Assembly: GCA_965208835.1 (NCBI GenBank)
Contig: OZ242358.1
Span: 1,280,001 to 1,344,000 of the forward strand
DNA length: 64,000 bases
From: Candidatus Latescibacterota bacterium
Lineage (GTDB): Bacteria; Latescibacterota; UBA2968; GCA-2709665
Direction: 5' to 3'
Shown here: positions 6,140-63,724 of the stretch, piece by piece
Layout: each line of letters opens with the position of its first letter
Position numbering within the stretch: the first letter of the stretch is position 1
Program-made: the position numbers and the translations under genes
Notes under the pieces: generated by a model
Told to the model about the DNA's origin: nothing
The model's input: only the letters and a program-made list of their open reading frames with translations
Databases searched by the model: none

Positions 6140-6356
6140 GGGTAGACGTAAGCCGGTAGACGGGAGAGCACCACACCCCGCCCCACCACCGGGTGAGACG
6201 AAAGACGGGAGAGGGGAGAGATTTCCTGCCTTGTGAGGATTCTTTTCGTGTCGAAGACAAGAAGGAAAAACATACCGGGCAAGGATTTCTTCTCCCATCT
6301 CACCTCTACCGGCTCCCCGCATTTCTCCTACCGTCTACCCTCTTCCCTCTCACCGC
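6140..6356. repeat. Outer pair of 4x heptamer arms (6140-6167, 6327-6356) enclosing copy C1
   Basis: GGGTAGA CGTAAGC CGGTAGA CGGGAGA ... CCTACCG TCTACCC TCTTCCC TCTCACC GC. Confidence 0.7.
6190..6320 (-). repeat. 131-bp heptamer-armed intergenic element, copy C1
   Basis: On the minus strand: GC + 4 heptamers + 71-bp core (AGAAATCCTTGCC...TGTCTTCGACA...GGCAGGAAATC) + 4 TCT heptamers. Confidence 0.9.
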
Positions 6357-8980: not shown

Positions 8981-9015
8981 GGGTCGGTGCAGAATACACG
9001 ACGAGAAGTCATGAG

Positions 9016-9057
9016 AAAACGGAAGGGTCGAAGCGCAAGATAGCGGCTTCGACCCTT
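9016..9057 (-). terminator. Repeated intrinsic terminator/REP-like hairpin, copy E1
   Basis: AAGGGTCGAAG-cgcaagatagcgg-CTTCGACCCTT with a T-tract on the minus strand; lies between convergent genes. Confidence 0.65.
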
Positions 9058-9236
9058 GTCATTTCGGACAATTGTCATTTTAGCGTTGAGGGCCGGATCT
9101 CTTGACGTCCCGGCACGATTGATGGGATCTCCGGCGTGGAAACGCGAAAGTCCAGGAGCTGATGATGCGGACGACGTGTCAATGTGCTGAATTGGACAAA
9201 CCGTCACGTTTGTTCCTCTTCTGCCGCAATGTACCT

Positions 9237-10685
9237 TCAGGGAATTTCGGCCTTTACGTGACCGGTACCGGTATCCCGGTGGTCCACGATGGGTCGTGGT
9301 GGCGTACCGAACGAACTGGACGCGGGCTTGCTTGCGCCAGCACTTCGTCGGAATTGTGACAGACCGTCCATGCTGATCGTGGCCCTGCCGCCGGTTGCTT
9401 CATAGAAATTGTACCACAAGTCAAACTCGTCTTCACCCGCGTAGCTGAACAAGGATGCGTCCCCGCTCAGGTTCTCCAGCACCCATCGGGTCGCCGGGTA
9501 CTCTTCAGTGATCAGAAGAATAACGGCTGCTCGGAAATCCTTCTGTGCCTGCGAATAGTCGGGAACACGCGGGCCTATCTTGGCAATGATGTCCTCGATT
9601 GTATATGTCCTTACTTGACTCGCGGAGAAAGACCTGAAATCCCAAGAAACCCAGTTTTCGTTTATGTCGGAAAGCGGCCCCCAGTCCTCAGCAACCGGCT
9701 TGGCGTCCTCCGCAACCCAGAGGTCAGGAACTTCAACCGGTGGTATGAATCCCGCCAGGTACAATTCGATAGGACTAAGGAGTTTGTTGTAGACCCCTAC
9801 GGGATTGAACTTACTAGAGCTGCGGTACCGCCCGTTCCCATGATCGACCAAGCCGGCAATGTCAAAACCCCCAAGAACGCCGTTGGCGCTGCTGAAGCCC
9901 CAATGCACGGTATATGGTCGAGGTACAATGTCAAGGAAGTTTGCCCAGCGGTGAGTTAATTCGTGCAGAAGCGGCCCCTCAATAAGATTGGTATACAGAC
10001 GCTCGGAATCCCAAAGGCCCCGGCTGAACTCCGTGACTACACCGTGGGAGAGAAATACCACACCCTGCAGTTTCCTGGAAGATCCCCAATCTCCATTGGA
10101 AAAAGACTCCAGGCCGATCCCTTGCACATCGTTTCTTACACGACTGTAAAAGGCTCCTACGAAAGCTCCGGAATCAAGCTGATCTATACGCAAGCTGGGG
10201 ATGAACACCAGAAAATCAAACTCATCGTTGAAATACCTGAAGAATCGCGCAGCATACTCGCGCAGTGGAAGACCACCTGCGGCAAGGTCCTCTTTTACAG
10301 GTAAGACAAATACGTTGTCATTATAGATCTCCGGATCAACAAAGGCGACGACCGGGGAGGGCGCCTCCTTGCCGAAGTTCTGCGCGAAGATCACAAAGTC
10401 TGAAAACCCGATTTCCCCATCACCGTTCAGATCATACGTGCCGTCGTACGTTTCGTCGCCCTGGCGCGCTCCGAACACGCCCGCGAAGATCAGAAAGTCG
10501 CCAAACCCGATCGTCCCGTCGCCGTCGAAGTCGAGAATAGTCGCGGTATCGTCGTCGTTGGCGTTGACGGAGATCGCAGATGCTGTCGCGCCACCATAGT
10601 CTGAACTGACGCCGATAGCGGCGACGAATATGGATGCCAATAGCGCGAGGGCGGCAGTACATATCGCGACCTTTAAGTAAGTCAT
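9237..10685 (-). CDS. Secreted dockerin/EF-hand-like protein with a zincin (HExxH) metalloprotease domain
   Basis: Signal peptide; two DxDGDG/DLNGDG Ca-binding loops (DFDGDGTIGFGDF, DLNGDGEIGFSDF); 'LLHELTHRW' then 'VHWG'; AGGAGG Shine-Dalgarno (SD). Confidence 0.8.
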   Translation of the reverse strand: MTYLKVAICTAALALLASIFVAAIGVSSDYGGATASAISVNANDDDTATILDFDGDGTIGFGDFLIFAGVFGARQGDETYDGTYDLNGDGEIGFSDFVIFAQNFGKEAPSPVVAFVDPEIYNDNVFVLPVKEDLAAGGLPLREYAARFFRYFNDEFDFLVFIPSLRIDQLDSGAFVGAFYSRVRNDVQGIGLESFSNGDWGSSRKLQGVVFLSHGVVTEFSRGLWDSERLYTNLIEGPLLHELTHRWANFLDIVPRPYTVHWGFSSANGVLGGFDIAGLVDHGNGRYRSSSKFNPVGVYNKLLSPIELYLAGFIPPVEVPDLWVAEDAKPVAEDWGPLSDINENWVSWDFRSFSASQVRTYTIEDIIAKIGPRVPDYSQAQKDFRAAVILLITEEYPATRWVLENLSGDASLFSYAGEDEFDLWYNFYEATGGRATISMDGLSQFRRSAGASKPASSSFGTPPRPIVDHRDTGTGHVKAEIP

Positions 10686-10963: not shown

Positions 10964-13285
10964 TCACCGGCTGATCGTCCGTACGATGCGCCCCTGCTGA
11001 TCTACTACGTAGATGGGTTCATCCATCAGCCCGGCGCCGCATTTAAGCTCATGCTCTGCCACGGCTGGCACGCCGGGATGCCCCGTCGCGTAGCCATCGC
11101 TGAACTCGATGCCAATGCCCCACACCCGTTCAGCGCCTTCCAGCAGACTGGTCCGGTCGTCTGCGGGATCCAAGAGCGGTCTCGCCTGGATTGAACCCTG
11201 GACGTCCGGAACGGCGTGCGTTGCGACGGCGGTCTTCGCGCCTGAAGGCACCAACGGCAGGGTAAATGGGTAAGCCTGGGAGACATCCACGCTGTAGCCG
11301 AGATCGGCCATGGACTGCACCGTGATCGCGCTGAGCGCCCTTCCCCCGCCAGGCGTCATGAGTTCAAGTTGGGATTCCGGCCCAAAAGACCCGAACACAG
11401 AACCCCTCCAGTGCGACCCATCCATCTTCGCCACAGGCACCTTCGCACCCGTGTAAGCCCGCCCGCCCGCGTCGTCGAAGGCCGCAACTGCCAGCCGGCC
11501 GTTGAAGTGCGTGTCGGCATTCGGGTCGTCCCAGGACAGGTTCTGACGGAAGCCGGTCTGGGCCCAGACCGGCCCGCCGAACCCCACAACGTGCCCGATC
11601 TCGTGAAGCCCTGAAATCAGCGAAATGGCGAAGCGCAAGCCGAACGCCATGCAGCCCACGACAGGCAGATGGGTCTCCTCGCGCAAGAGATGTGGCCGAC
11701 CCCACGCACCGAAGTATTGCTCGCGAGGAATGCTGGTTATGTAAATACGCAGGTCGTCTATCCGCTCCCCGGAAGGGATCGCGTAGGAATGATCGCCGCA
11801 CTGACCCGACAAGCCCTGTGTAAATGTATAGTCCGGCAGATCCTCTGTTATCACCGACATCCACCGCCGTGCCGCGAATCGGAGCACATTCTTCCGGGTC
11901 TCATCGAACTGGTTGGTGAGGAACACGAGCTCGATGTTGAACTCTCTCTCTCGCAACGGGGTCGGGTCGAAGAGTACTGTAACGCCTCGAGCCCGAAGGG
12001 CGGGAATATGATCGTTGATGGAGGTGAAGCTCAGGGGGTTTTCCCAAAGGGTCAGCTCTGTCAGTTTGGTCAATCCGGAAAGCGCCGTGAGGTCTGAAAT
12101 GTTTGTTCCGGAAAGATACAACCTTTTCAAGTCGGTCAATCCGGAAAGCGCCGAGAGTTCCGTGATGTTGGTCAGGAAAAGGTCCAGCTCTGTCAGTTTG
12201 GTCAATCCGGAAAGCGCCGAGAGTTCCGTAATGTTGGTTATGGAAAGATCTAACCATGTCAGTTTGGTCAAACCGGAGAGCGCCGAGAGATCCGTGATGT
12301 TGGTTGCGGAAAGGTCTAACCACGTCAGGTTGGTCAAATCCCCAATCGGCGAGAGGACCGTGATGTTGGTTTGGTAAAGGTCCAGCTCTGTCAGTTTGGT
12401 CAAGCCGGAAAGCGCCGTGAGGTCCGTGACGTTGGTTACAGAAAGGTCCAGCCACTTCAGGTTGGTCAAACCCCCAAGCGCCGTGAGGTCCGAAGCGTTG
12501 GTTCCGGAAAGGTCCAGCCACGTCAGGTTGGTCAAGCCGGAGAGTGCCGTGAGGTCCGAAATATTGTTGTCGTTAAGGGCCAATTGTCTCAGGTTGGCCA
12601 GGCCCTCAAGTGCCAGGAGGTCGGTGATATTGTTGTACCAAAGATACAGCCGTGTCAGACTGGTCAAGCCAGCAAGTGCCGAGAGGTCAGAGATGTTCGT
12701 TCGGAAAAGGTTCAATGATCTCAGGTTGGTCAAGCCCGTAAGCGCCGAGAAGTCTGTGATGTTGTTGTTCGATAGATCAAGACTCGTCAGGTTCGTGGCA
12801 GACTCCAGGCCAGACAAATCGTTAATGCCCGCGTCTCTTGCCTGCAGGTGATAAAGAGTTTTCATTTCGGCCAGGGTGATCGTCGCGCCTCTCGCCTTGT
12901 TCAAGGCCGCCTCAATCGCCGCGCGGAGGTTGACGTCGGGGATGACGACGGCCGGGGAGGGTGCGTCCTTTCCGAAGTTCTGTGCGAAGATCACAAAGTC
13001 GGAAAACCCGATCTCCCCATCGCCGTTCAAATCGTACGTGGCGTCGTACTTCTCGTCCCCCTGGCTCGCTCCGAACACGCCCGCGAAGATCAGAAAGTCG
13101 CCAAACCCGATCGTCCCGTCGCCGTCGAAGTCGGGAATAGTCGCGGTATCCTCGCCGCTTTCGTCGACGGAGATCGAGTGTGCTGTTACCGCACCACCGA
13201 CTGAATCAGCGCCGATTGCGGCGTAGCACACGACTGCCAGCAGCACGAGCGTGGCAATACCCATTACGCATTTCCAGACAGTCAT
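10964..13285 (-). CDS. Secreted dockerin/EF-hand + internalin-like LRR + leishmanolysin(M8)-like metalloprotease
   Basis: Signal peptide, same dockerin-like module, 'IPDVNLRAAIEAAL' cap, about 12 22-aa LRRs, 'LHEIGHVVGFG', 'GSHWR', 'ELMT', 'LSAITVQSMADLGY'. Confidence 0.88.
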   Translation of the reverse strand: MTVWKCVMGIATLVLLAVVCYAAIGADSVGGAVTAHSISVDESGEDTATIPDFDGDGTIGFGDFLIFAGVFGASQGDEKYDATYDLNGDGEIGFSDFVIFAQNFGKDAPSPAVVIPDVNLRAAIEAALNKARGATITLAEMKTLYHLQARDAGINDLSGLESATNLTSLDLSNNNITDFSALTGLTNLRSLNLFRTNISDLSALAGLTSLTRLYLWYNNITDLLALEGLANLRQLALNDNNISDLTALSGLTNLTWLDLSGTNASDLTALGGLTNLKWLDLSVTNVTDLTALSGLTKLTELDLYQTNITVLSPIGDLTNLTWLDLSATNITDLSALSGLTKLTWLDLSITNITELSALSGLTKLTELDLFLTNITELSALSGLTDLKRLYLSGTNISDLTALSGLTKLTELTLWENPLSFTSINDHIPALRARGVTVLFDPTPLREREFNIELVFLTNQFDETRKNVLRFAARRWMSVITEDLPDYTFTQGLSGQCGDHSYAIPSGERIDDLRIYITSIPREQYFGAWGRPHLLREETHLPVVGCMAFGLRFAISLISGLHEIGHVVGFGGPVWAQTGFRQNLSWDDPNADTHFNGRLAVAAFDDAGGRAYTGAKVPVAKMDGSHWRGSVFGSFGPESQLELMTPGGGRALSAITVQSMADLGYSVDVSQAYPFTLPLVPSGAKTAVATHAVPDVQGSIQARPLLDPADDRTSLLEGAERVWGIGIEFSDGYATGHPGVPAVAEHELKCGAGLMDEPIYVVDQQGRIVRTISR
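12030..12856 (-). repeat. 66-bp coding tandem repeats (12 full + 1 partial LRR)
   Basis: Consensus LTxLDLSxTNITDLSALSGLTN/K; boundaries approximate. Confidence 0.9.
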
Positions 13286-13781: not shown

Positions 13782-13923
13782 CCTCGGACCGGCTTCCTGA
13801 GAGAGTCTGCGCAGATCTGAGGGGACCACTTCGCGGATGATTCTGCGACGCATCGTGGAAGTAAACAGCTGCGGCCAAATGTAGCGAAGCCGCGATTTCG
13901 CAGTCGCTGGAAACGGCGTTCAG

Positions 13924-13967
13924 AAAAACAAGAAGGGTCGAAGCGCGCTTGTGCGGCTTCGACCCTT
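13924..13967 (-). terminator. Repeated terminator, copy E2
   Basis: AAGGGTCGAAG-cgcgcttgtgcgg-CTTCGACCCTT followed by CTTGTTTTT on the minus strand, about 55 nt after the MNT-HEPN stop. Confidence 0.7.
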
Positions 13968-14021
13968 GAATCTGCCACCTACATCGGATGTATTTGGAAG
14001 CCTGCAGATGACCTGTCGTCC

Positions 14022-17401: not shown

Positions 17402-17465
17402 CGTGCTTTACTCCGATAGTCTGGACGATTCGTTGTGCCGGCGATCGGCCGCAGGTACGGGTTCC

Positions 17466-17508
17466 AAAACAAGAAAGGTCGAAGCGCTCTTCAGCAGCCT
17501 CGACCCTC
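17466..17508 (-). terminator. Repeated terminator, copy E3
   Basis: AAAGGTCGAAG-cgctcttcagcag-CCTCGACCCTC followed by CTTGTTTT on the minus strand, about 15 nt after the selenoprotein stop. Confidence 0.65.
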
Positions 17509-17523
17509 GTTTCCTGCGATGTA

Positions 17524-23796: not shown

Positions 23797-23803
23797 TCCA
23801 GAG

Positions 23804-23933
23804 GCGGGAAGAGGTGAGACGGAAGCCGGGAGAAGAAATCCTTGCCGATCTGTTCCTCCTCTATGCCTCCGGCAAAATTTGAAACCCTACGAGGCAGGTC
23901 GTCTCTAACCTCTTACGTCTCCCGTCTCCCCGC
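23804..23933 (+). repeat. Heptamer-armed element, copy C2 (130 bp)
   Basis: GC GGGAAGA GGTGAGA CGGAAGC CGGGAGA + 70-bp core + TCTAACC TCTTACG TCTCCCG TCTCCCC GC. Confidence 0.9.
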
Positions 23934-24012
23934 ATTTTTTCTTCTCTCTACCCGCGTTCAGGCTTTTTGTGGCCAATTTGGCGCTTATCTTTTTTCGAAT
24001 TGAGATTTTATC

Positions 24013-24762
24013 GTGGAACAGGATCTGTCACCGATTTTCAAGCGCTGGATCTTCGATCCACAGAAGACCTGTGCCAGAAAGATCGTGGGAATCGACGGAC
24101 GGGAGAAGCTTCAGGTCCGTTTCGAGCTGGGCCTTTTGCAGATGGAGATGACCGGTCGACCCGACGGCAAGTCCCCCAAAGGATATGGCTCGGCCCTTGA
24201 TGCGTACCTCGATCGTCTGGAGGCGCACCGCCGACAACACGGTTCAGATGAAGGTTTCCGGCTGGATGAACAGGCATGCAATGTGTTGTGGACGGAGGGA
24301 GTACAATTCTATCAGCGGTACGTCTGCCTGATGCATCTGGGCGACTATGAAGGGGTTTTGAGGGACACCACGCACAATCTGGCGTTGCTTGATCTGGTGA
24401 GGACATTTTCCGGAGATGAAGAGATCAAGTGTGAGTTTGAGCGTTCACGGACGTGCGTTCTCATGGTACACACCAGATCCAAGGGTGAAATCTGTCTGCT
24501 GAATGGAGATTCCGAGGGTGCACTGGAGGTGGTGCGGGAGGGTATCGAGGAAATCCGGAGCTTTCTGATCGAGTCGGGAGACCCGGACTCGCTCGAATGC
24601 AGTGATGAACTTCGTACGCTGGAAGAATGGGAGGATGAGATTCAGCGGAAATACCCCGCCTGCGCCAGGGAGAACCTTCTGGATCAGATTCAGACGGCGG
24701 TCGCAATGGAGCGTTACGAACAGGCTGCGATCTTGAGAAACCGTCTTCGCGGACTCAACTAA
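24013..24762 (+). CDS. UvrB/UvrC (UVR) motif-containing conserved protein
   Basis: 'GREKLQVRFELGLLQMEMTGRPDG', 'QFYQRY', C-terminal UVR 'AVAMERYEQAAILRNRL'. Confidence 0.8.
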   Translation: MEQDLSPIFKRWIFDPQKTCARKIVGIDGREKLQVRFELGLLQMEMTGRPDGKSPKGYGSALDAYLDRLEAHRRQHGSDEGFRLDEQACNVLWTEGVQFYQRYVCLMHLGDYEGVLRDTTHNLALLDLVRTFSGDEEIKCEFERSRTCVLMVHTRSKGEICLLNGDSEGALEVVREGIEEIRSFLIESGDPDSLECSDELRTLEEWEDEIQRKYPACARENLLDQIQTAVAMERYEQAAILRNRLRGLN

Positions 24763-24926
24763 GAAGCTGTTTTAAAATTCCCAGCGGTCTTCGCACGGCT
24801 GCAAAAGCGCCGGTCGGCGTTGGTCAAACCCACCCGTATAAACAAATATGGGCGGATTTTCCCGCCTTGACCGCCACTTTTTCGCTCGCGCTCTGGAACT
24901 CACCGGTAATTTTAAAAACAGCTTCT
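24762..24926 (+). mobile_element. MITE family B (165 bp)
   Basis: TIRs AGAAGCTGTTTTAAAATT / AATTTTAAAAACAGCTTCT; internal GGTC-GGCGTTG-N40-CGCCTT-GACC; begins in the TAA stop of the upstream gene. Confidence 0.8.
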
Positions 24927-25000
24927 GAATTCGTTTCCGACAGCCGAACAGGATGTCCACGCGGGGCTGCGGCGCCGTGCGGACGACAAAACAGCATATT

Positions 25001-28768: not shown

Positions 28769-28835
28769 GGTTGTTCTCTCAATCGTTTACGTCTAACTTC
28801 GGAAAGAGGTGAGCCGATAGAGGAAAAGCTTGAAA

Positions 28836-28966
28836 TCGGGAAGACGGGAGCCGTGAGCCGTGAGAAGACGTCCTTGCCCCACCGGTTCTTCGTTTATGTC
28901 ACCGACAAGAAGTGAGACCACAAGGGGCAGGAAGTCTCTTGCGTCTCCCCTCTCCCTTCTCACCTC
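28836..28966 (+). repeat. Heptamer-armed element, copy C3 (131 bp)
   Basis: GGGAAGA CGGGAGC CGTGAGC CGTGAGA + 71-bp core + TCTTGCG TCTCCCC TCTCCCT TCTCACC; extra heptamers upstream at 28801-28821. Confidence 0.85.
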
Positions 28967-28979
28967 ACTTAGATTCAGT

Positions 28980-35355: not shown

Positions 35356-35496
35356 GCGCCGGACTCCCTGTAAGCGTCCCTCCGGCCTGTACGCCGTGTG
35401 CAGAGCAGCGTCGTTCTGCACGGGTACCTTCTGTGCCTTTTGTGGCCAATTTGACTGTTGTCTTTTTTCTAATTGAGGTTAATACCAGAGGAGATC

Positions 35497-36594: not shown

Positions 36595-37427
36595 TCGATG
36601 CCCATCTGCATATTGGACATATGGGCAGGAGTATCGAGAATACGATCGGGCATATCGACGGTATCGGGGCGGAGAAGGCTGTATTCCTTCCAATCGAGAC
36701 GGCCGACGGGGAGTACGAGTGGCTCACCGAAACGGTGGCCCAGGCTCATGAGCGGTACCCGGACAGGGTCATTCCCTTCTGCCACGTGGATGTGACTCGC
36801 GACGACGCGGTTGCGGAACTCGAACGACGCGCGGCAACGGGAGTGTTCAGGGGATACGGGGAACAGAAACAGCACCTGCCGTTGAACCATCCCGGTCTGG
36901 AGCGCGTGCTGGCCTTCTGCAACGAGATGCGCTGGCCCGTTACGTGGCATTTCCAGGAGGGGAGTCGGGGTTACAACCAGGGAATCGCGCATTTGGAAAC
37001 GCTCGTGCGCAAGTTCCGTGACATCAGGTTCATTGGGCACGCGCAGTCCTGGTGGTCCAATATCAGCGCTGAGGTGCCGCCGCCGGAGGAGACACTATAC
37101 CCGACTGGGCCGGTGGTTCCGGGCGGACTGGCGGACCGACTGCTGTCCGATTACGAGAATGTATACGCGGACCTTTCAGCGGGGTCGGGACTGGGGGCCA
37201 TCACCCGGGACGAGGCGTTCGGCAGGGACTTTCTGAAGCGCCACCGGCGGAAACTGCTGTTCGCCACGGATTGCCCGTGTGTGGATGGGCGGGGAACCGA
37301 CTATCCGCCGGGATGTTTTGCGGCGAAGAGTCTGCCTCTCCTGAGACGGATGGTGGACGATCCCGAGGCATTGGAGGACATTCTGCACCGGAACGCGGTG
37401 CGCGTGATTGGGCTGGAAGGGAATTGA
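36591..37427 (+). CDS. Amidohydrolase (Amidohydro_2 family)
   Basis: IDAHLH, YGEQK, FIGHA, YADLSAGSG, LFATD, NAVR. Confidence 0.85.
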   Translation: MIDAHLHIGHMGRSIENTIGHIDGIGAEKAVFLPIETADGEYEWLTETVAQAHERYPDRVIPFCHVDVTRDDAVAELERRAATGVFRGYGEQKQHLPLNHPGLERVLAFCNEMRWPVTWHFQEGSRGYNQGIAHLETLVRKFRDIRFIGHAQSWWSNISAEVPPPEETLYPTGPVVPGGLADRLLSDYENVYADLSAGSGLGAITRDEAFGRDFLKRHRRKLLFATDCPCVDGRGTDYPPGCFAAKSLPLLRRMVDDPEALEDILHRNAVRVIGLEGN

Positions 37428-37727
37428 ACAACAGAAGCCCGATGTCTTTCGCATCAACAGAAGGTCATTTCCCAGATATGCAATTGGTAGGAAAAACCCT
37501 TGTGGTTGGCTTGATTTTGGCTGATTGCTGTTCGCACTCGAATTGTTAAACGGTTGACTAACGCGTTGCCTGTCGCGAACACTACCAGAGCAGAGCGCGT
37601 GGTTCCGTTCTGCGCCGGAGACCGGTTGTAATCCGATGCTGGTAGGGCAAAGAATCGTGTGCGTCCGGTGAGGCGATTCGCGCTGTGCCTGTGGCAGGCC
37701 CGGCGCCCAGCGGCGACAATTCTAAAG

Positions 37728-37858
37728 GCGGTGAGAAGGTAGAGGGAAGCCGGTAGAGGAAGTCCTTGCCCGATATTTTAATCTTTCTTGCCTCTGGCAC
37801 GAGAAGAAACCTCGCAAGGCAGGCAATCTCTACCCTCTCCCGTCTTCCGTCTCCCCGC
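37728..37858 (+). repeat. Heptamer-armed element, copy C4 (131 bp)
   Basis: GC GGTGAGA AGGTAGA GGGAAGC CGGTAGA + 71-bp core + TCTACCC TCTCCCG TCTTCCG TCTCCCC GC. Confidence 0.92.
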
Positions 37859-37988
37859 TCTTAAGGAACTCGCCGAAGGCAGGGAATTTGGGGAGAGGTT
37901 TTGTGTTTGGAGTAAGTCATCCCTTCATTCTCTATAATTCGCCTTTCGTTTCTGTGTAAATTGACATCGCGGGAGTGTAAGGTTCGGG

Positions 37989-39440
37989 ATGTCCATTTCA
38001 ATTAAAGATGCTGCCTTGAACGTCCTGAATATGAGAGCGCGGATGCCCTTCCGATATGGGATCGCGTCTCTCGTCGCCGTGCCCCATCTGTTCGTCCGGG
38101 TGACCGCGGAGATCGACGGACGCCGCGAGGTGGGACTCGCCGCGGATGGGCTCCCGCCCAAGTGGTTTACGAAGAACCCCGAGGCGTCATTCGAAGACGA
38201 CCTCGAGGAAATGCTGACGGTCATCCGGCAGGCGTGCCGGCTGGCTCTGGCGGCGGGCCCGGCGGAGTCCGTCTATGGTCTCTGGCGGGAAACCTACAAC
38301 GGTCAGAAGGAATGGGCTGCAGCCACACCGTACCCGCCATTGCTGTGGGGTTTCGGCGTGAGCCTGGTCGAGCGCGCTCTAATCGACGCGTTTTGCCGGA
38401 ACACCGGGGCAAGGTTCGAAAGTGCATTACGTGAAAATGCTTTCGGCATTCGGCTGGGAGAGATTTGCCGCGAACTTGGCGGGGAGGAACCCCGGGCGTT
38501 GCTGCCCGAAAGAGCGAGCAGGTCGATTGTGGCGCGCCATACCGTGGGGTTGACCGACCCCCTGACAGACGCGGACATCCCGACGGACGAACGCGTGGAC
38601 GACGGCCTTCCGCAATCTCTCGAAGCCAGTATAAAGACGTACGGTCTGTCGCATTTGAAAATCAAGCTGTGCGGCGATTCGGACCAGGACGCGGAACGGC
38701 TGAAGGACATCGCCACATTGATGGAACGACATTCCGGAACTGACTACGCGTTTACGCTGGACGGTAACGAGCAATATACCGAAATCGACCCGTTCCGCGC
38801 GTTGTGGGATTCGATTGCGTCGGACCCGTCGCTCGACGCGTTCATGCGACGGCTGCTGTTTGTCGAGCAGCCGCTGAGGCGGGATGTTGCCCTGGGCGCG
38901 GCAGCGGGTCGGGCGATGCGCGACTGGCCAGGCCGTCCGCCGATGATTATCGACGAGTCCGACGGGACGCTGACCAGCGCGGCGGAAGCGCTGGAACTGG
39001 GATACGCGGGAACCAGCCACAAGAATTGCAAGGGGATCTTCAAGGGCGTCGCCAGCGCCTGCCTCATCGCGGACAGACGGAAGAAGGACCCCGGCCGGAG
39101 ATTCGTTCTGAGCAGCGAGGACCTGGGGAACGTCGGCCCCGTCGCGCTGCTGCAGGATCTGGCGGTGGCCGCGTGCCTGGGCGTGGGTCATACCGAGCGC
39201 AACGGTCATCACTATTTCACGGGGTTGAGCATGTATCCCCCGGACATACAGGAGCAGGTCCTCCGGAATCACGGCGGGCTCTACCGCCGTCACGACGCCG
39301 GGTTTCCGACGCTGGACGTTCGGGGCGGCCGGCTGGATATCGGCAGCGTCGTCGCTGCGCCATTCGGTTACGGGTTCGAGCTGGACACCACGCGCTTTAC
39401 CCCGCTGGAAGACTGGTCGGCGGGATCTCTGGATCTTTGA
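37989..39440 (+). CDS. Uncharacterised enolase-superfamily protein
   Basis: KIKL, LDGNEQY, FVEQP, IIDESD metal-ligand pattern; SHKNCKG. Confidence 0.7.
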   Translation: MSISIKDAALNVLNMRARMPFRYGIASLVAVPHLFVRVTAEIDGRREVGLAADGLPPKWFTKNPEASFEDDLEEMLTVIRQACRLALAAGPAESVYGLWRETYNGQKEWAAATPYPPLLWGFGVSLVERALIDAFCRNTGARFESALRENAFGIRLGEICRELGGEEPRALLPERASRSIVARHTVGLTDPLTDADIPTDERVDDGLPQSLEASIKTYGLSHLKIKLCGDSDQDAERLKDIATLMERHSGTDYAFTLDGNEQYTEIDPFRALWDSIASDPSLDAFMRRLLFVEQPLRRDVALGAAAGRAMRDWPGRPPMIIDESDGTLTSAAEALELGYAGTSHKNCKGIFKGVASACLIADRRKKDPGRRFVLSSEDLGNVGPVALLQDLAVAACLGVGHTERNGHHYFTGLSMYPPDIQEQVLRNHGGLYRRHDAGFPTLDVRGGRLDIGSVVAAPFGYGFELDTTRFTPLEDWSAGSLDL

Positions 39441-45548: not shown

Positions 45549-45647
45549 CAGTCCGTTGATAAAGTCGCTCTGCAGGCGAGTCCGAGCAACGCAGTATTTC
45601 GACCGCAAGGGCCGGCCGCAGCCCGGATGGACTTTTGCAACGGGCTG
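45549..45647 (-). mobile_element. MITE family A, copy A2 (99 bp, internal deletion)
   Basis: Both TIRs present; flanks CTAT/CTGT; lacks about 60 bp of the central core of A1. Confidence 0.85.
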
Positions 45648-47644: not shown

Positions 47645-47968
47645 CAGTCCGTTGAAAACGTCGCTCTGAAGGCGAGGTATGGTGTCCCGTCCCGGAAATA
47701 TGTCACCATTCATCCGCCGATTCATCCCGTCTGGCGGCGTTGCCTTCGCTCGGTGACCTTTCGCAGGTCGCCTTGCTCAGACGCCTTGCCAGCCAGGCGA
47801 CTCGGCGTCCGAATTTCGGCAATCTATTTCCGGGTCGGAACACGTGCCATTGTGGGCGAAGACAAGGCGCGCAACCGAGTCCCATCCTTCGATTCGGCGA
47901 GGGCGCGCAACGCAGTATTTCGACCGCAAGGGCCGGCCGTAGTGCGGATGGACTTTTTCAACGGGCTG
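47645..47968 (-). mobile_element. MITE family A, copy A3, carrying a nested MITE
   Basis: A-type TIRs at both ends, flanks TTAA/TCAA; aligns to A1 once 47682-47843 is removed. Confidence 0.85.
47682..47843 (+). mobile_element. MITE family G nested inside A3 (162 bp)
   Basis: 19-bp TIRs GTGTCCCGTCCCGGAAATA / TATTTCCGGGTCGGAACAC (2 mismatches); internal CTGGC-GGCGTTG-N39-CGCCTT-GCCAG. Confidence 0.82.
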
Positions 47969-63415: not shown

Positions 63416-63520
63416 GTCAAGTACTCCCAAATGTGCGATGGAACCCGGAACTGCCGTGTCTAATTTAGGCGTTACGCCAATTGCGGACAAGCAGATTCAG
63501 CAGTCAGGAAAGGCATAAAG

Positions 63521-63651
63521 GCGGGGAGACGTAAGAAGGTAGACGGTAGAAGAAATCCTTGCCCGGTATGTTATCGCTTCTGGCCTCCGGCACGAGAAGA
63601 AACTTTACAAGGCAGGCAATCTCTCCCCTCTCCCCTCTTCCCTCTCACCGC
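63521..63651 (+). repeat. Heptamer-armed element, copy C5 (131 bp)
   Basis: GC GGGGAGA CGTAAGA AGGTAGA CGGTAGA + 71-bp core + TCTCCCC TCTCCCC TCTTCCC TCTCACC GC. Confidence 0.92.
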
Positions 63652-63724
63652 ATCAAGGAAAACGGCAAGGAACCAGGGGACGTCAGGGCGTGGTTGGGTT
63701 TCAGGGCCAGGAAACTGATCCAGG

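Follow-up and report, generated by a model that had tools for sequence, protein, structure and literature searches.

The locus and its copies in the window

The window analysed here is a 64,000-nt stretch of DNA comprising bases 1,280,001-1,344,000 of a single 5,180,620-bp contig with 59.5% G+C (genome G000). The span 37758-37828 of this window is the middle of a foldback (hairpin-shaped) repeat of about 135 bp that carries no gene. On the plus strand, the repeat begins with a purine-rich left arm (37724..37757) composed of AAA, GCGG and four 7-nt units starting with AGA, continues with a core of fixed length (37758..37826), which is the span originally reported, and closes with a pyrimidine-rich right arm (37827..37862), where 7-nt units starting with TCT are followed by CCCCGC and a T-rich end. 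The right arm is the inverse complement of the left at the conserved letters. Based on the sequence and on alignments of five and 182 copies, the core contains an outer left box, TCCTTGCC (37763..37770, plus strand), and an outer right box, GGCAGG (37818..37823, plus strand), on either side of a central mini-palindrome (37788..37799, plus strand) of TTGCC, a 3-nt centre and GGCA, the TGCC and GGCA of which occupy 37789-37792 and 37796-37799.

Four further copies are present in the window. The copy at 23800..23934 (plus strand) sits in a leader directly after a promoter-like site (TTGACT, 17 nt, TATTCT), and that at 28832..28967 (plus strand), with a TGTC/GACA centre, lies between two minus-strand genes. 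Repeat searching and alignment identified a copy with a GGCC/GGCA centre at 63517..63652 (plus strand), and the copy at 6189..6324 on the minus strand is a long form that has additional arm modules on its outside and a TGTC/GACA centre. The words TCCTTG(C)CC and GGCAGG are identical in all five window copies, as the original prediction had it, but over 182 genomic copies they are conserved and not invariant.

Genome-wide copies and the heptad arms

A profile built from four copies located 247 non-overlapping places in the genome, of which 182 are full-length copies (81 plus-strand, 101 minus-strand). Copies are frequent in the origin-proximal half of the chromosome and rare near the terminus inferred from skew; adjacent copies often share an orientation, and there is no orientation rule by replichore. 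According to rough ORF calls, 133 of the 182 copies overlap no ORF, 26 overlap one partially and 23 by more than half. Equally rough gene calls place 36 copies between convergent and 39 between divergent genes, while in tandem gene contexts 50 copies are co-oriented and 34 anti-oriented with the genes, showing no strong bias.

In the 182-copy alignment each arm resolves into a series of four heptads, spelled AGA-S-G-K-N in the left arm and N-M-C-S-TCT in the right one, and the consensus ends of the element are AAA-N-GCGG ... CCGC-N-TTT. The AGA/TCT letters and the G/C at phase 5 are 95-100% conserved (mean 1.89 bits), several columns being identical in 182/182 copies, whereas the arm letters between the conserved positions are nearly free (mean 0.81 bits). 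These heptad arms, which lie outside the reported span and had been left out of the original prediction, are the most constrained part of the element. Arrays that match a strict pattern mostly (325/390) consist of exactly three units plus a closing AGA. A spacing of 69-72 nt separates 93 of the 124 neighbouring purine-then-pyrimidine array pairs, which implies a fixed core length. Longer spacings represent composites built from the same modules, and a search for an autonomous parent among the same 124 pairs found none spaced 300-3000 nt apart. In the long form, further arm modules are attached on the outside together with a 26-nt piece; this piece occurs 46 times, in 42 cases directly next to the 3' end of an element. 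Overall, the element is orientation-neutral in that either transcript reads a purine 5' arm and a pyrimidine 3' arm.

The four boxes of the core

Conservation within the core is highest in the two TTGCC and two GGCA boxes (80-99% per column over 182 copies), where the mean information is 1.59 bits compared with 1.89 bits for the invariant arm positions and 0.98 and 1.22 bits for the two spacers. The spacers are therefore not free to diverge, as had been supposed, and the core is not the most constrained part of the element. The exact box is present at columns 54-57 (TGCC) in 106/182 copies, with a further 35 in which a run one C shorter is displayed as a gap, at columns 76-79 (TGCC) in 149, at 83-86 (GGCA) in 144 and at 105-108 (GGCA) in 150; all four are exact together in 62/182 copies. 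The full words are less common, TCCTTGCC occurring in 59/182 and GGCAGG in 113/182.

Spacing was measured on the 56 copies that match a strict four-box pattern. The TTGCC boxes are 22 nt apart from start to start in 49 of these, 21 nt in six and 23 nt in one, while the 3-nt centre and the 22-nt distance between the GGCA boxes hold without exception among the 56. The predicted arrangement of four short boxes with fixed 22-nt spacing around a 3-nt centre thus held in the larger alignment for the strict-pattern copies, in a core of about 71 nt, and information content over all 182 genomic copies revealed positional conservation rather than uniform decay. We conclude that the four TTGCC/GGCA boxes represent a genuinely constrained module in a repeat of selfish appearance, and not an integron-like site. 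Their role would be either that of a candidate symmetric protein site or that of two short nested helices capping the hairpin.

Distribution and turnover

The source DNA occurs in sponge or marine metagenome runs, and none of the 24 listed is recorded as RNA. The whole element is present in 14/14 sister species and in 0/7 genomes of the family's other genera. The strict arm pattern occurs 14-357 times per genome within the genus and hundreds of times in two species of another genus, where the match is confined to the arms, arranged as direct arrays next to a GTAG-headed palindrome; the rest of the phylum has at most perfect single-unit heptamer tandems.

Alignment with five relatives placed the focus copy in an intergenic insertion of about 555 bp (37428..37985, plus strand). 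Two genes abut at this site in L011, L012, L014 and L022, a different short insert is found in L013, and contigs from runs X6 and X8 connect 37427-37431 with 38004-38019 through 19-37 other letters. A second repeat of about 190 bp with some 12 copies surrounds the focus copy (37560..37717 on the left and 37863-37899 on the right, plus strand). It exists in two forms, which carry at the same spot either the foldback element or a 28-nt hairpin (six element-free copies). This ~190-bp repeat is positioned upstream of genes.

The 23800 copy is also present in G009 and G005 and is absent in G003, G002 and G007. It is ~98% identical among G000, G009 and G005 save for one exact 7-nt unit deleted in G009, and the sequence surrounding the promoter-like site before it aligns across the six species compared. 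In a ~98%-identical strain represented by a run X8 contig, 66 nt replace 23799-24019 and the copy is absent. Likewise, the 28832 copy is shared with G009, while its site is nearly empty in G007, G002 and G003 and holds a different palindromic insert in G005.

A comparison of G009 with G000 gave 22 rows with a copy in the same orientation, four with several copies, three with an inverted copy, seven with none and one without synteny, in which three pairs of overlapping loci count some copies twice; the inversions can be seen directly when the syntenic sites are aligned. Of 11 syntenic pairs, just three are reciprocal best matches. In the other eight the partner ranks 17-149 of 182, while non-syntenic copies match at 0.86-0.97. 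The 'empty' sites hold unrelated sequence, indicating replacement with no clean excision or insertion scar. Inverted, absent and swapped syntenic copies point to overwriting or re-insertion at fixed sites and not to simple decay, and members of the family are accordingly seen, both within and between species, to be gained, lost, inverted and replaced by other members at fixed intergenic sites. Element identity between G000 and G009 in aligned orthologous stretches (84.3%) matches that of third codon positions (84.1%), and thus gives no sign of overall purifying selection.

Folding and covariation

The window centres (TGCC/GGCA twice, TGTC/GACA twice and GGCC/GGCA once) vary in the way that had been taken for covariation, but genome-wide the effect is tiny, with T:A in 3/182 copies. 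The inner central pair reads C:G in 174 copies, T:A in three, T:G in two, C:A in two and A:G in one. The three T:A copies belong to two unrelated lineages with a core identity of 0.69 between them and nearest neighbours that are C:G, and the central pair is never unpaired in an alignment of 63 sequences. It is the only pair with a clean compensatory change. Since a symmetric T:A change is expected also from a palindromic duplex bound by a dimer, it does not separate a hairpin from a duplex site. The 'extra T' between the outer boxes, proposed as an extrahelical base, forms T:G in 134/182 copies and is drawn as U-G by RNAalifold. It is better read as a wobble in an unbroken helix, for which an extrahelical base is not needed.

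No covariation extends across the structure as a whole. Column pairs on the hairpin diagonal are Watson-Crick at or below the frequency expected under independence (e.g. 52 observed versus 77 expected for columns 41/119), and core column pairs behave likewise. When 3' halves were swapped between copies, pairing with a copy's own arm was the lower (z -3.9 with wobbles, -5.2 without), and this negative arm covariation could be a subfamily effect; core pairing was marginally above the swap control (z +2.0 and +1.2). A covariance model built from the five window copies yielded 63 copies from the window, two other G000 regions and nine sister genomes. In this alignment, which leans towards structure, 85.3% of cells are paired versus 85.2% after shuffling (183/500 shuffles as high) and the covariation score is 0.075 versus 0.068 (43/500 as high), whereas the number of pairs with at least one double change (16 versus 9.7; 0/500 as high) is the only measure above control. 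Free arm positions are unpaired in 28-42 of 61-63 copies. Over all 182 copies, a mutual-information ranking is headed by subfamily markers and flank variants rather than by pairs, and RNAalifold returned no structure.

These results bear on the possibility that the repeat is an RNA element, co-transcribed and with its arm duplex cut by RNase III and its core helices forming a cap, that serves in processing or stability or as a terminator-like hairpin with AAA and TTT on its two sides. We consider this unlikely, though it retains a measure of plausibility. In each copy, the conserved positions give about 22 of 30 arm pairs, and fold z-scores are -1.5 to -3.6. On the other hand, pairing does not exceed the shuffled control, and at the free arm positions at least half of the copies are unpaired. 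Some copies do lie within operons or leaders, and a purine 5' arm with a pyrimidine 3' arm is available in either orientation. The compensated central pair and the T-G wobble of the outer helix would also fit, yet in the opposite transcript the wobble becomes a C-A mismatch and both orientations are common. RNase III processing of the stems of rRNA intervening sequences (IVS) is described in PMC4990558. For the present element, Rfam offers no family: the window as a whole has 0 matches that reach the gathering score, a permissive search of 37540-38000 gave only a microRNA-like match with an E-value of 3.4, and a simple scan found no terminator-like site inside it.

Transposases, recombinases and comparison with other repeats

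The G000 assembly, a single contig estimated at 97.8% completeness, contains no match to Y1/HUH transposases (PF01797), for which control matches were obtained in 6/14 named genomes, and none to IS110, TnpB, DDE_Tnp_1, serine recombinases or reverse transcriptases. The best match to the integron integrase (TIGR02249) scores 90.5 bits against a cut-off of 265, and tyrosine recombinases number only two. Among transposases, the genome has two IS630-type genes that are dissimilar to each other, IS1595 in two copies and IS3 in two or three. Apart from non-mobile paralogues, IS3 and IS1595 are also its only multi-copy genes, and no heptad ends were found on the IS3, IS1595 or IS630 copies. An autonomous parent with heptad ends and a transposase was not found via arm-pair spacing, multi-copy genes or the IS630-type genes, and flank logos of 135 short-form copies display no target-site duplication, whether TA or other. 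A plasmid collection searched in distant mode gave no match to the element. Four stretches of IMG/VR retrieved with a 21-nt junction pattern were judged to be chance matches; nhmmer covers the pattern alone.

An ordinary MITE mobilised by a DDE transposase (IS630, IS5, IS1595 or IS3 type), with the heptads as subterminal sites and the core as a deletion remnant, is in our view a quite improbable origin. Bacterial MITEs such as Correia/CREE, RUP and ERIC are small repeats with inverted ends and many copies that occur within operons and are insertion-polymorphic. The present element agrees with them in size, terminal inverted repeats, lack of coding capacity, copy number, operon positions and insertion polymorphism, and its genome does hold genes of the IS630, IS1595 and IS3 types. 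However, it differs in lacking a target duplication and a detectable transposase-bearing parent with matching ends, the resident IS ends have no heptads, DDE_Tnp_1 is absent, no neighbouring arm arrays lie 300-3000 bp apart and 'empty' sites hold unrelated sequence. Its gene-carrying relatives (see below) encode PF05635 and no transposase.

Two further comparisons can be drawn. REP, BIME and REPIN sequences of Proteobacteria are high-copy, intergenic, imperfect palindromes with modular mosaics and species-specific repertoires. The present family shares the mosaics, the species-specific repertoires and the presence of different members at matching intergenic sites, whereas it has no RAYT/Y1 and its unit is ~135 bp long with heptad arms instead of a 20-40-nt GTAG-headed palindrome; within the element, GTAG arises only by chance, when T fills the free heptad position. 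The foldback (FB) elements of Drosophila have long inverted ends made of short tandem sub-repeats around a middle piece. Here, too, inverted ends of short tandem sub-repeats flank a middle, but FB elements belong to another kingdom and scale and their associated genes are unrelated.

An attC-like or REP-like single-strand substrate for a tyrosine or HUH recombinase is the least supported reading of the four boxes and very unlikely. The attC core sites (R''/L'' and L'/R') have the consensus RYYYAAC ... GTTRRRY. By inspection, these words are absent from the 182-copy consensus, in agreement with the original statement that no integron consensus is present. The element resembles attC as an imperfect palindrome with nested short helices, ten same-orientation copies are clustered between genes at 4.206-4.216 Mb, and cores are inverted at three syntenic sites. 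However, the level of pairing is that of the shuffled control, a copy's two arms match each other no better than they match foreign ones and no covariation spans the structure, which speaks against the folded single-strand substrate that had been proposed. As for enzymes, searches of the genome gave no integron integrase, Y1/HUH, IS110 or serine recombinase and only two tyrosine recombinases, and there is no cassette logic, the genes of the cluster being ordinary metabolic paralogues on the opposite strand.

Barely plausible is the idea that the purine arms are G-quadruplex-forming heptamers like the GGGNATC repeats of Xanthomonas and Nostoc, with four units supplying four G-tracts: most arrays do have three units plus AGA with a GCGGG tract in front, and PMC4692102 reports that quadruplex-forming G-rich heptamer repeats prefer four units, but four GG tracts are present in only 176/364 arms and four GGG tracts in 10/364, the invariant AGA letters would fall in loops and about a fifth of units have an isolated G.

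PF05635 genes and shared arms

Four genes for PF05635, the 23S-rRNA intervening-sequence protein, are encoded in G000 (4933075-4933431, on the minus strand and one of the arm-linked genes, 5107549-5107896, 607596-607913 and 1520182-1520490). Each is framed by its own arrays of 7-nt period, namely AGA-S-G-K-N (two genes), GAGTGAA/GAGAGAA and AATTCTT. The two genes with AGA-S-G-K-N arrays encode proteins 86% identical to each other and are bounded by the arrays on both sides, and one of them abuts a long-form copy; here the arrays are direct and not inverted. Close orthologues (86-99% identity) of the arm-linked gene are present in 7/15 genomes of the genus, and arrays lie within ~100 bp at all seven loci (G000 plus six sister species), compared with 0/6 loci with distant PF05635 paralogues, the short locus L169 being left out. 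In G003 and G014, a purine array, the PF05635 gene and a pyrimidine array together form a gene-carrying foldback unit of ~530 bp. Compared by eye only, the 71-nt core shows no clear sequence relation to the interior of the gene-carrying units.

Eight genomes within the genus have many repeats but no close orthologue, and neither array-rich species from the other genus has one; G022 and G034, each with hundreds of arrays, are among the genomes in which none was found. Persistence of the repeats thus does not require the protein.

The nearest known parallel is the 23S rRNA IVS with an S23p/PF05635 ORF, known from Coxiella, Leptospira and Salmonella. According to PMC4990558, the Coxiella IVS has stem-forming terminal inverted repeats that are cut by RNase III, carries tandem GACAGAT heptamers in variable number before the S23p ORF, and belongs to a class of elements long proposed as mobile, an old hypothesis. 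The likeness to the present family extends to the long-stem terminal inverted repeats, to tandem heptamers beside the ORF (GACAGAT being AGA-T-G-A-C in the AGA register) and to a PF05635 gene inside full-length units, which here means the relatives and not the 135-bp copy itself. Unit number varies between Coxiella strains, and one exact 7-nt unit is deleted from the G009 copy described above. Unlike the IVS, the copies here lie, in the regions examined, between protein genes and are mostly gene-less, with a 71-nt core and hundreds per genome. RNase III cutting, reported for IVS stems, would be hypothetical here.

Proposed origin and significance

On balance, and with restrained confidence, we favour the view that the repeat is a ~135-bp gene-less, IVS-like foldback element with heptad arms that are read by a protein, spread by copy-and-replace and with the boxes as a second module. 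It builds on what is documented above: the architecture of the element, its conservation in a fixed phase with no constraint on pairing, its distribution and turnover, and the arms in common with PF05635 units. The 135-bp element would be a non-autonomous relative of the gene-carrying IVS-like units, and the invariant heptad positions would be read as sequence by a protein rather than kept for base pairing. As the sole element-borne candidate, the PF05635 protein may be the reader. Spread and overwriting could proceed by copy-and-replace or conversion with the arms as common ends, and the four boxes may constitute a second constrained cis-module, as a symmetric protein site or as two nested capping helices. 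It counts against this explanation that PF05635 is, to our knowledge, not a known recombinase or nuclease.

A bolder and rather doubtful version is that PF05635, as an oligomeric four-helix bundle, reads AGA-N4 (four to five per arm), joins the arms and drives copy-and-replace 'homing' into existing hairpins. If so, the presence of different and sometimes inverted members at syntenic sites would be explained with no recourse to a known transposase or reverse transcriptase, the 71-nt four-box core would serve as the minimal cis-acting cassette in the place of the gene, and the 23S-rRNA IVS proteins would be a mobility or maintenance factor of widespread bacterial foldback repeats.

Small intergenic palindromic repeats are common and mostly have no known partner protein or mechanism. 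The present high-copy family, from an uncultured phylum, brings together invariant letters that are set in a strict 7-nt phase among free ones and are not constrained by pairing, copies that are overwritten and inverted at fixed sites of a genome lacking the usual transposases and reverse transcriptase, and arms in common with PF05635 units. We know of no established role for PF05635 proteins outside diversity-generating retroelements (DGRs), and a link to heptad arrays would give the family such a role and would connect rRNA intervening sequences with intergenic heptamer repeats in several phyla. A resemblance of PF05635 to the Avd protein of DGRs is noted in PMC10053308. Within the literature covered, which lay outside subscription journals, we found nothing on Latescibacterota repeats, and nothing that ties PF05635 in general to intergenic foldback repeats with heptamer arms.

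Neighbouring repeats and other observations

The window contains several other repeats. One of these, at 24755-24932, is another hairpin-ended repeat, ~167-178 bp long, whose inverted ends are perfect and of the AGAAGCTGTTTTAAAATT type. It has at least 101 near-full copies in G000 (median identity 83%) and dozens at 91-97% in sister species, and its word depth in contigs is ~100-fold over the flanks; DDE_Tnp_1 has no match in G000. A module of 46-66 nt (23962-24007 and 35435-35480) has 22 near-full copies genome-wide and often adjoins the foldback element. Both window copies end a few bases before a gene start, and from its sequence, the GAGG of the module could be a ribosome-binding site, so that the module looks like a portable leader. 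At 3749129-3749410 in G000, a foldback copy is split by the ~160-bp insertion of another repeat, which is related to a 73-nt repeat found in the window at 45575-45647 and 47896-47968.

A 66-nt unit, which would be 22 codons if coding, is repeated head to tail at least ten times in 11980-12873, and a 300-nt segment is duplicated at 10346-10645 and 12946-13245 with 84% identity. A 46-nt GC-rich palindrome of terminator-like shape, GGGTCGAAGC ... GCTTCGACCC, occurs three times (9013-9058, 13923-13968 and 17464-17509). Several foldback copies, e.g. those at 4215478 and 4951713 in G000, are flanked by a GTAG-headed GC-rich palindrome, GTAGGGGCGACCGGCCGGTCGCC, which also occurs in L013 near 2900 and is REP-like in form, though G000 has no Y1 transposase. 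In G022, a similar GTAGGGACAGGCC...GCCTGTCC hairpin accompanies the heptad arrays.

The ten same-orientation copies at 4,206,000-4,216,000 of G000 (L143) occupy all spacers along a run of minus-strand genes, which include three homocysteine S-methyltransferase paralogues and two GFO/IDH/MocA oxidoreductases. A cassette array was considered for this cluster and rejected, as the genes are ordinary metabolic ones and there is no tandem repeat. Finally, G008 and G001 carry multi-copy genes for a 463-aa reverse transcriptase (16 and 13 matches), none of which were found in G000, G009 or G002, and these genes are group II intron-like by size and copy number.
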